Shown here one piece after another: positions 29,930 through 48,807 of a stretch of 64,000 bases of DNA. The stretch is from assembly GCA_951406725.2 (NCBI GenBank), contig OX597829.1, positions 55,242,001-55,306,000 of the forward strand. Direction: 5' to 3'. The translations under genes were made by a program, and so were the position numbers. This DNA comes from Octopus vulgaris (taxonomy: Eukaryota). Below the pieces are notes generated by a model. The model saw only the letters and a list, made by a program, of their open reading frames with translations. It was not told the origin of the DNA and ran no database searches. Position 1 is the stretch's first letter. Each line of letters starts with the position of its first letter.

Positions 29930-30015
<86 letters not shown>
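29850..30015. repeat. (CAT)n and (TAA)n microsatellites
   Basis: Directly visible. Confidence 0.95.
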
Positions 30016-30018
<3 letters not shown>

Positions 30019-31498
30019 AATAAAAGAATTAGACCAAAGCCAAACTTACAAATACTTAGGAATCCATGAACTAGATAAGACACAACACACACAAATGAAA
30101 GAGAAAATAAAAAAAGAATATTATAGACGAGTTAGATCAATACTAAACACAGAGCTCAATGCTAAAAACAAGATAATAGGTATCAACACTTTAGCTGTCC
30201 CAGTTATAAGTTACAGCTACAATATCCTTAACTGGACACGAAATGAACTGACCAAAATAGATAGGAAAACAAGAAAAATAATGACAGGATCTAGGATGCA
30301 TCACCCAAAATCTGACATAGAAAGACTATATATACAACGTATGGAAGGTGGTAGAGGCCTTATACAGCTGGAAAACTACTATAAAATAACCACCATAGGA
30401 CTGCAAAAATATCTACTTCAGAAGGAAGGAAAACTGATCCAGATAGCGGCAAAACACGAGCAAAACAAAAAACTGTTCTCAGTATTTAAGGAAGCTGACA
30501 AATACAAACAAGAAATCATACCACCTAATAAACATGAAGAAGAAGAAGAAGATGAAGAAACAACAAAAGCTATAAAACAAATGAAATCCAAACTAAAAAC
30601 AGAACAGCAACGAACCATGATAAAACGATGGCAAGAAAAGCCCCTTCATGGTAAATACTGCACTAAACTAAACGCAAAAGAAATAGACAAAGAAAAATCC
30701 CAGCAATGGTTGAGAAGCTCAGGACTCAAAGCAGAAACAGAGGGATTTTTAATTGCAGCACAAGACCAAAGCCTCCCCACCAGAAATTACCAAAAACATG
30801 TAATGAAAAGAAATATTACAAGTAACTGCAGAATATGTGGAGATGGACAAGAAACAATAAATCATATTATCTCTAGCTGCCCAGTCCTGGCTAAGAAGGA
30901 ATATATTCACAGACATGACAGAGTTGGAACCTACATACATTGGAAGCTATGCCAACATTATGGAATAACAACAGAAAAAAGATGGTATAGGCACACACCA
31001 GAAAAGGTCACAGAAAACGAGAAAGCAACCATACTCTGGGATATGCCGATACACACAGATAGAGAAATTAAGGCCAACAGACCAGATATAGTTGTCAGAG
31101 ATCATGAAGAAAAAAATGCTTTTTAATTGATGTATCAATACCGGCAGATGACAACGTGTCTCTAAAAGAAATGGAGAAACTCTCAAAATACAAAGACCTG
31201 GAAATAGAGGTAACTAGAATGTGGAATCTGAAAACAGAAACAATTCCTATCATAGTAGGTGCATTAGGCATGATAAAAAAATATTCAGACAAATACATAA
31301 CAAAAACACCAGGACTTACAAACACATATAACATACAGAAAATTGCACTACTAGGCACTGCCCACATCCTACGCAGAACACTTTCCATACAATAACCATC
31401 AGAGCATCACAACAAATCACAGCACCTACCCAAGGCACACAGAGCTGCGCTCGGTAGTGAAGTGAAAGCACGCTATAAAAATAAAAATAAAACTACTG
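30016..31498 (+). mobile_element. 5'-truncated R4/Dong-like LINE inserted in (TAA)n
   Basis: YKYLGI, ORF 30095-31126 with GGRGL, CCHC motif CRICGDGQETINHIISSC, RHD, RPDIV; one frameshift, then LIDVSIP..KLSKYKDL..IIVGALG; (TAA)n on both sides. Confidence 0.92.
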
Positions 31499-46378: not shown

Positions 46379-46499
46379 AATAATAACAAGTTGCATGTGC
46401 ACTGCCCGTAATCTGTGCAATGGAATAATATGTTGTATAAAATTGTAAAATGAGAGGAAATAAATTTTGAGGATGAACAAGTCTCCATGTTTCGCAATC

Positions 46500-47575
46500 T
46501 TTCCCTGTTGATTTAACGTGGGCGGTCCCACGCGCACTTCATCCGATAGCGACGCGCACGCTGTCCTTCCGGTGGTTGTCTCGCTACACCAAAGCCGAGT
46601 CTAAGGCGCACACGAATAGTCATCGCCGGTCTCGTTTTTTACCGTGGACGGTGCCATCGCGCCTTGAAAGGTTAGCCATCGCTAATTAGCAAGCCCTCCT
46701 CCTTTGCACGCGTTCTAGGATGTCCGATCGCCAGGACAACCTAGTGCAAGAGATGAGGCACACAAGAGGGGTCGGTCGAACTCGGAAGCTCTCTCGACAC
46801 AGGCCACTCCCGTGTGCAGGTCGCTTTCGAGGCAGACCCCACTCAAGCGCCGCAGGGGACCCCAACGGCAGACCGGGGTCAAATTGGTCGCGCATCAGGA
46901 CCCCTACGTTTGGTGACCGCAGCCACCTCCCCAGAATCTAGTCCAACGCCAGCAACCTTTCTCATAAGGCGAAGGGGATCCCGGGGTGCCGGTGTATTAA
47001 GGTGGACGGCGCCATCCGTCAAGGAGTAGAGCTTCCCCACCGAAACGAACTAAGAGCGTGTCCGTAGCGGAAGGGTCATCTAATCCAAGACGCCGGTGTA
47101 TTATAGTGGTCGGTCCCACTCACCCCGAATCTACGCTCATCAGGATGCTCTGGCTATTATAGTGGGCAGCGCCACCGCCGATTTTCTGCAAGCGACCGAG
47201 CAAGGGATCAAGCAGGCCCCGACTTTAAGTGGACGAAGCCACGCGTCCAGGGGGTGAATCCATCCGCCTGCGGGATCGGCTGCAAATCCCTGGATGCACG
47301 GATCATAACCTCACCTAAACGCCCGGTATTTTCAAGTGGGCGGTTTCACCTTGCACCGGAGGGTGCGCGCTTGCCGGATTCATCTAACCATCTCCGGGTG
47401 CGGCTATAATTGGTGTGGTGCGGTATTGGGCCATTGGAAATGGATCGCCGCATGCCCACACATTAACACCCGTCCACCATGGGCGAGGTGAGGGTCTACG
47501 TACAATTGCGGGACCTCCGATTTTCGTGGACTAGCCACCCGTCCAGGCAGACGCTACGAACAACGACCTTACCTA
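46500..47575 (-). ncRNA. GC-rich non-coding island with a tandem array of predicted H-type pseudoknots
   Basis: Repeated minus-strand motif GUGG-(6-nt loop with CCG/CUG/UUCG)-CCAC-(A/U-rich linker)-CGG/CAG/CGGG at ~46505, 46625, 46904, 46988, 47092, 47150, 47218, 47323; see findings. Confidence 0.55.
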
Positions 47576-47642: not shown

Positions 47643-47767
47643 ATAGAATGGTTGTATACTGTCAATCTAACAAGAACGTGACAGTAGGGGGTACACTGCC
47701 TCCTAGGGCTATACAACGGTGGTGTACCCCCTACTGTCACGTTCTTGTTAGATTGACAGTATACAAC

Positions 47768-47775
<8 letters not shown>
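47643..47775. repeat. Hairpin (arms 47643-47700 / 47718-47775) between (TA)n tracts
   Basis: Near-perfect 58-bp arms; preceded by GAGACATGTACGGTGGTG (like the GAAAC..GUA half of a hammerhead). Confidence 0.85.
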
Positions 47776-47827
<52 letters not shown>

Positions 47828-48408: not shown

Positions 48409-48807
48409 CTATACTAGCAATAATTATAACGATATAAAACATGGAAACTTGTTCATCCTCAAAATTTATTTCTTCTTATTTTACAATTTTATACAACATA
48501 TTATTTCATTGCACAGATGACGGGCAGTGCACATGCAACTTCTTCATGGTCTATCCATTTGTGGAGTCACCCACGGAATTACCCATCCGAGGAATTTACA
48601 GTGTGAATGACAACTGACATTAGTCATAAACGTTAAATATTAATCTTTGCGTTTAAACATAACCTGAAACATAACTGAGAGCCACCACGGTAGCCTCCCT
48701 GATAGTATATCCCTATAAGCTCACACACACACACACACACTCACACACACACTCACTCACACACACACACACACACACTCACACACACACACACGCTCAC
48801 ACACACG

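Follow-up and report, generated by a model that had tools for sequence, protein, structure and literature searches.

A likely R2-dependent non-coding element in Octopus vulgaris with a body of repeated, predicted docking pseudoknots

Cryo-EM of the A-clade R2 of a bird and a turtle has captured the R2 protein bound to a 3' pseudoknot-hinge-stem, and the available text of these reports describes a hinge that is read by sequence by the bird protein, a zinc finger 3 that touches the pseudoknot and a compensatory mutant that rescues insertion (PMC12180492, PMC12222951). The finch 3' element consists, in the portion of the supplement available, of S1 GGUGG/CCACC, a 9-nt U/A loop, S2 CGGG/CCCG and the hinge GAAAAG (PMC12180492 supplement). 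Another closely related system is the R2 SIDE of Drosophila willistoni, which is described in the accessible part of its source as a 529 bp element with a 5' R2 ribozyme, an R2 3' end, a non-coding centre without R2 identity, no ORF and an autonomous partner (Eickbush and Eickbush 2012, PMC3414825). Duplications of 28S at R2 5' ends and upstream cleavage are also known, as far as the available part of PMC3774820 goes.

The locus described here is a GC-rich island in a 64,000-nt stretch of the Octopus vulgaris genome (contig OX597829.1, positions 55,242,001 to 55,306,000), the whole of which is called the window. This island is the 3' two-thirds of an old, dispersed non-coding element of ~1.7 kb, which shares with the R2 SIDE as described in PMC3414825 the R2-type ribozyme pattern and 3' end, the non-coding centre, the lack of an ORF and the presence of an autonomous partner, and differs from it in size, in a centre made of docking-pseudoknot look-alikes, in an A-clade-like partner, in being found as old dispersed fragments outside assembled rDNA and in a ribozyme that is putative. 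Its sequence makes it a likely parasite of the R2 SIDE type, with a body composed of arrayed, predicted docking pseudoknots. The literature searched (outside subscription journals and bioRxiv supplements) contained neither an R2 SIDE outside Drosophila nor a retroelement with such an array; in their available text, PMC5035012 names oyster R2 and no octopus or non-autonomous R2, and PMC12203849 and PMC4370867 describe neither an R2 SIDE outside Drosophila nor an array of this kind. The family may already be named in Repbase or Dfam.

The island and its dispersed family

The island has a GC content of 58% compared to 38% in the whole window and a CpG observed/expected ratio of 1.04 compared to 0.79, and the only overlapping stop-to-stop frame of at least 100 aa is exactly 100 aa long, so that the GC- and CpG-rich block without a credible ORF of the preliminary description was confirmed. 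The repeated motif reported there also stands, in the form of the S1 hairpin: the pattern GUGG-N5-7-CCAC with at most one mismatch occurs 11 times in the island and 1.8 ± 1.3 times in 1000 shuffles of it, none of which reached 11 (the remaining 63 kb of the window hold 30 occurrences). Six units were recovered unprompted as an ungapped repeat family and all seven main units proposed earlier are present at their coordinates (Table 1). An A-C mismatch is present in S1 of the units at 47015, 46657 and 47349. Among the sites previously listed as weaker units, 46505 is the R2 terminal pseudoknot and 47517 and 46849 are ends of diverged units, while 47467 and 47399 flank a longer hairpin and form no compact unit. 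The minus strand, claimed as the RNA sense, folds modestly below its shuffles (z -2.24, 0/20) whereas the plus strand does not (z -0.63, 6/20), and the R2 polarity of the 3' end gives an independent pointer to the same strand.

Table 1. Parts of the island copy in the window (positions within the 64,000-nt stretch).
Feature	Positions	Strand	Basis
Non-coding R2-dependent element, fragment cut at both ends	46493..47575	-	genome matches, alignment of copies
R2-type 3' end, 83-86% identity to R2 3' ends of the same genome	46493..46585	-	alignment
GAAAG hinge and first arm of the terminal stem; the window copy ends here	46493..46503	-	
Terminal pseudoknot U13: S1 GUGG/CCAC, A-rich L3, S2 CC/GG; predicted R2-protein docking site	46504..46531	-	architecture compared with the available text of PMC12180492
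Internal unit U12: CCG/CGG, long L3, no hinge	46626..46657	-	
Diverged unit U11: GGUC/GACC, weak S1	46820..46842	-	
Internal unit U10: S2 CUGC/GUAG, each pair kept in 12-14 of 13-15 copies	46904..46927	-	
Internal unit U9: CCG/CGG	46988..47015	-	
Internal unit U8: CCG/CGG; 21/24 nt match an R2 terminal unit	47093..47120	-	
Internal unit U7: CUG with CAG or CGG; S2 paired in 12/12 copies	47150..47175	-	
Internal unit U6: UCG/CGG; alternative fold possible	47219..47242	-	
Internal unit U5: CCG/CGG	47323..47349	-	
Internal unit U2: duplicate type of U6; S2 broken in the window copy	47517..47538	-	

A search of the 2.8 Gb genome with the island recovered 42 matches at 72-94% identity. Raw candidates amounted to 691, a figure likely inflated by an unrelated high-copy repeat whose edge the window copy adjoins; single positions of the island give 11-22 matches. 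Contigs of this repeat connect 46491 to 47573 with 20 other letters in between, and two 108-nt inverted arms that are 94% complementary (46385-46492 and 48437-48544) were rejected as terminal repeats of the element, being part of the same repeat (326 candidates). Elsewhere in the window, a ~134-nt near-palindrome at 47643-47776, beside a TA microsatellite and with very high summed contig depth, is probably a MITE-like repeat, and a 398-aa open frame at 29930-31126 of the plus strand, with a zf-RVT match below cut-off (E 1e-5) and a weak tblastn match to R2 protein, is probably a LINE fragment.

The longest copy, L002, which was found by walking outward, includes both ribozyme and 3' junction within about 1.7 kb and has no frame longer than 152 aa; the window fragment spans about positions 500-1600 of a copy of this type and is without the ribozyme and the last ~20 nt. 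In L023, L022 and L028 the first units follow immediately on the ribozyme. Both ends are missing from most copies and inversions occur in some; subfamilies are about 25% apart, and no long near-identical young copy is present among the family copies examined. Contigs of the close relatives B and C cross the junction between the window copy and its flank at 46462; likewise, the close relatives C and D contain the L002 copy at about 99%, which makes these insertions likely older than the split of the species. Of two read sets presumed to be RNA, one yielded a few low-depth contigs of other copies and the other none, which speaks neither for nor against expression. The window copy is dead.

Some members of the family and its surroundings show further features. 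In L002 (2530-2680), L004 and L005 the 3' end is of a second type: a long hairpin, in which changes are compensatory, comes after the hinge. L002 carries an extra fold-back ahead of its 28S bases. L004 sits in the decayed end of another non-LTR element, which lies ~300 nt upstream in sense, has a restriction-like endonuclease motif followed by TAA repeats, and is presumably R4/Dong-like. At L142 (G000:C11, near 16913867), a GC-rich stretch of ~330 nt ends in a unit with the motif of the array; BLAST does not match this stretch to the island family, and it is possibly a third related element.

Ends, putative ribozyme and partner of the element

Both ends of the element tie it to R2. In six copies (L028, L029, L032, L035, L037 and L041), 28S bases that cover the R2 site or lie directly downstream of it precede the ribozyme core and form a hairpin with the element's own bases; the start of three of these copies (L037, L029 and L041) lies 9-11 nt ahead of the site, where a ribozyme cut would put it. 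L002 and L022 start with TAAGG, and at the other end L128 stops with TAGCC and L002 continues into downstream 28S for about 27 nt. The longer copies have in common with R2 a putative ribozyme core, recognized by sequence pattern, that consists of P2, P3, L3, P1' and J4/2 (CNAA), with compensatory differences between family and R2 in P3 (ACC/GGU compared to GCC/GGC) and likewise in P2; the seven bases after P3 pair, in the predicted register, with 28S bases -11 to -5. At its 3' end the window copy matches the R2 3' ends of L071, L057, L066 and L077 over 80-93 nt. R2 protein gave no tblastn match in any of the family loci.

An autonomous partner is available in the same genome. A full-length R2 in the rDNA array (L072, G000:C20, about 24065616-24070365, minus strand) has an intact 1276-aa ORF with an RT domain and zinc fingers of the order CCHH-CCHC-CCHH, and its best PDB matches are vertebrate R2 (9nl2, 9dou and 9nl3, with 9nl2/9dou at about 1e-157 to 1e-153), ahead of silkworm R2. 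A 1311-aa R2 ORF lies outside rDNA (L082), several diverged R2 subfamilies coexist, and R2 3' UTRs vary in length and sequence; the three that were scanned hold one or two S1-type sites each and no array. A search for the 28S stretch gave 25 sites, of which six are empty rDNA units; most others mark the 3' junction of either an R2 subfamily or a second non-coding element. The ten upstream junctions in assembled rDNA comprise six empty sites, one R2 and three of another element, with the island family in 0/10.

The second non-coding R2-site element (L047, L048, L055, L069, L070 and L079, on several contigs) is ~1.8 kb long with poly-T tracts. It is inserted at the R2 site, as the island family likely was, and resembles that family in ribozyme core, terminal module and length. 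The two match over no more than about 42 nt in the ribozyme and 34 nt at the 3' end; the second element, which retains long 28S flanks and holds no unit array, is a separate family.

The terminal module links the element to the structurally solved R2 complexes. All 13 R2-site 3' ends examined (11 R2 and two of the second element) show GUGG/CCAC, a 9-11-nt A-rich loop, GG, a GAA hinge and a hairpin, and the sequence of this hairpin differs among R2 subfamilies; in the R2 ends L066, L050, L052, L058, L059 and L067, the pseudoknot-hinge-stem layout and the S2 CC/GG persist with fully exchanged terminal hairpins. The last unit of the island (U13) is this module, of which the window copy has the hinge and first stem arm. 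Compared by eye with the finch element as given in the available text of PMC12180492, the octopus module has the same GGUGG/CCACC-type S1, one- or two-base L1, 9-11-nt A/U-rich L3, purine hinge, 3' hairpin and 28S junction, but S2 is CC/GG (terminal) or CCG/CGG (internal) instead of CGGG/CCCG, with two Watson-Crick pairs in the terminal S2 against four in finch. Moreover, the A-clade element appears in that text once per element, whereas the octopus element has about 11 such units, about ten of them internal and without hinge and stem. With both ends, the ribozyme pattern and a candidate partner in place, the island family is very probably an R2-dependent element, and the serial pseudoknot modules, protein-binding array or mobile-RNA body of the preliminary description pointed in the right direction although its identity as an R2-dependent non-autonomous retroelement was missed.

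Conservation and pairing of the units

The units were compared in an alignment of 64 rows, obtained from 72 distinct pieces after removal of four that are R2 ends, three that were inverted or stray and one that was a misplaced row. Departures, counted excluding C>T and G>A, are rarest in S1 (0.020), followed by S2 (0.038), and more frequent in L1 (0.113), L2 (0.121) and L3 (0.088), with other G/C columns at 0.054; S1 columns are conserved above other G/C columns (0/5000 draws), and S2 is not significantly so (748/5000). S2 is paired in 321/390 cells overall and in 298/341 without U1, whose S2 register is off by one in the alignment, and U13, whose S2 is alignment-dependent. A GAA hinge follows an internal unit in 1/127 unit copies. 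Consensus energy of the whole element is below that of column shuffles, a lenient control, in 11/11 windows (at most 2/30 shuffles as low), and in 9/11 windows the sense strand has a lower energy than the antisense. Internal units and terminal module have in common S1, loop length and an A-rich L3, and U8, the sole internal unit that BLAST aligned to an R2 terminal unit, does so weakly (24 nt, E 0.005). U1/U2 and U5/U6 sit in a visibly duplicated module, whereas the spacers between most units have no BLAST-detectable similarity to each other. On these sequence features, the internal units are probably homologous to the terminal pseudoknot.

The second helix, formed between loop and tail, was said earlier to be kept by compensatory changes. 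Statistically it is at chance: a generic H-type pseudoknot scan of the island gave nine matches with 8.1 ± 2.4 expected, a 3-nt loop-tail pairing with free spacing and hairpins fixed was found in 8/11 compared to 7.2 with random tails (879/2000), and Watson-Crick-only pairing in 6 compared to 4.35 (448/2000). What survives of the claim is CUG/CAG as one clear between-unit double change, with up to two more; in that unit (U7), nine of the 12 copies have CAG and three CGG, so that the change, fixed across copies, is ancestral yet represents one event only. The proposed fifth S2 pair of CUGCG/CGUAG at 46927 is particular to the window copy. Within units, nearly all double changes across copies are CG>UA or GC>AU, and they match CpG decay on both arms. 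A genome-wide pattern with the middle S2 pair left free gave 13/13 paired matches that are non-independent (8 CCG/CGG, 4 CUG/CAG, 1 CUG/CGG, 0 mismatched), with two matches in the control. A metagenome scan for R2 3' ends with the unit motif returned two matches, namely plain rDNA and an R2 that is unrelated and ends differently, and thus provided no cross-species covariation set. L130, a metagenome contig with an R2-like ORF end, a very short 3' UTR and a 28S junction, has a 3' structure unlike the octopus module. The claimed covariation is therefore weak as statistics and the support for pseudoknots comes mainly from homology to a solved structure, by analogy with which it is rather probable that the internal units fold as pseudoknots.

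Known RNA families gave little guidance. Rfam returned nothing at gathering score for the window region and L002, and the resemblance suggested to the tobamovirus upstream pseudoknot and to the pistol ribozyme found neither an Rfam match nor a conserved catalytic core; a scrambled-hammerhead reading was likewise rejected, since its core words are not conserved and CUGA-like words vary between copies (by eye). RF01079 (RF_site3), a frameshift pseudoknot of luteovirus origin, matched in the L002/window search at 18.6 and 16.4 bits (gathering 50; E 2.8 and 9.9). Like the units, it is compact in geometry and pairs a CA-CCG-U loop with CGG; with scores so far below gathering and no ORF to frameshift in the island, it is an analogue, not a member.

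Origin and possible role of the array

On balance, the island is best explained as a truncated copy of a ~1.7-kb protein-less element that was likely a passenger of R2, the units of which are likely hinge-less duplicates of a predicted R2-binding 3' pseudoknot, kept as extra landing sites. Master copies would reside at the R2 site of 28S and be read as part of the rRNA transcript, from which an HDV-like ribozyme with the seven 28S bases as P1 would free the RNA about 11 nt upstream of the site. R2 protein acting in trans would then bind the terminal pseudoknot-hinge-stem and copy the RNA by target-primed reverse transcription. The body may have been enlarged by duplication or template jumps of the 3' module, the internal copies keeping the pseudoknot and losing the hinge, so that they could bind without priming mid-RNA; dispersed fragments, including the window copy, would be dead off-target captures. 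That S1 was retained while the hinge was lost agrees with additional binding that does not prime internally. However, the hinge is the part read by sequence in bird R2, and hinge-less units may therefore bind poorly or not at all. Additionally, copies cut at both ends and with inversions depart from the canonical pattern of target-primed reverse transcription, which counts against this explanation, as does the absence of the family from the ten assembled upstream junctions. That extra binding is the reason why the internal units were kept is accordingly a tentative proposal, and it is doubtful, though conceivable, that tenfold hinge-less docking knots act as a multivalent sponge that takes R2 protein from autonomous RNA and feeds one productive 3' end.

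The most serious competitor, a real one although less probable, keeps the R2-dependent element and regards its internal units as passive leftovers of 3'-end duplication or template jumping that bind nothing. The non-significant S2 tests, the hinge lost from internal units, the location of U1/U2 and U5/U6 in a visibly duplicated module and S2 departures that resemble neutral CpG decay are all as expected for such leftovers; what they do not account for is an S1 held tighter than other G/C columns across ~25%-diverged subfamilies while the loops drift (0.088-0.121 compared to 0.020), and units that persist between spacers most of which have lost detectable similarity. It is less probable still that the units serve stability or compaction of the RNA, as nuclease blocks or in nucleolar protection, instead of protein docking. 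The folding of the whole element, lower in energy in the sense strand, and the compact luteovirus-like geometry with its weak RF01079 matches would suit such a role, whereas the S1 of the units agrees in sequence, and not in shape alone, with that of the known R2 docking element, and fragment ends are not enriched at units in four tests (3' ends 13/49, p 0.20; 5' ends 5/51, p 0.99), which also leaves the exonuclease blocks suggested earlier, and blocks to the reverse transcriptase, without support.

The remaining two readings concern the identity of the island itself. That an autonomous R2 subfamily, extinct or unassembled, supplied the island as its long 3' UTR is very improbable and largely refuted already: the R2 3' end in common and the variable R2 3' UTRs of this genome speak for it, but L002 is complete in ~1.7 kb with no frame above 152 aa, other copies pass from ribozyme directly to units, no family locus matches R2 protein, and the three scanned R2 3' UTRs hold isolated S1-type sites and not an array. 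It is scarcely credible, despite the luteovirus-like shape of the units, that the island stems from an endogenised RNA virus or viroid-like agent or is a host gene for a non-coding RNA, since both ends are R2- and 28S-derived, which already refutes this; in addition, no Rfam family reaches gathering score and the copies decay and fragment like dead mobile elements.

As a passenger of R2, the octopus family extends what is found in the literature searched, where R2 SIDEs are known from Drosophila only and are short, the island family being three times longer. An invertebrate three-finger R2 also ends in a pseudoknot-hinge-stem, with a swapped S2 pair, and the bird and turtle R2 proteins whose docking element was solved in 2025 are those used for RNA-only gene insertion. 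If the sponge reading were true, retrotransposon and passenger would compete by avidity and R2 activity would perhaps be damped. The pseudoknot variants of the family, some hinged and others hinge-less, form a natural series that could be used to test what R2 protein recognizes and whether template capture rises with extra knots.
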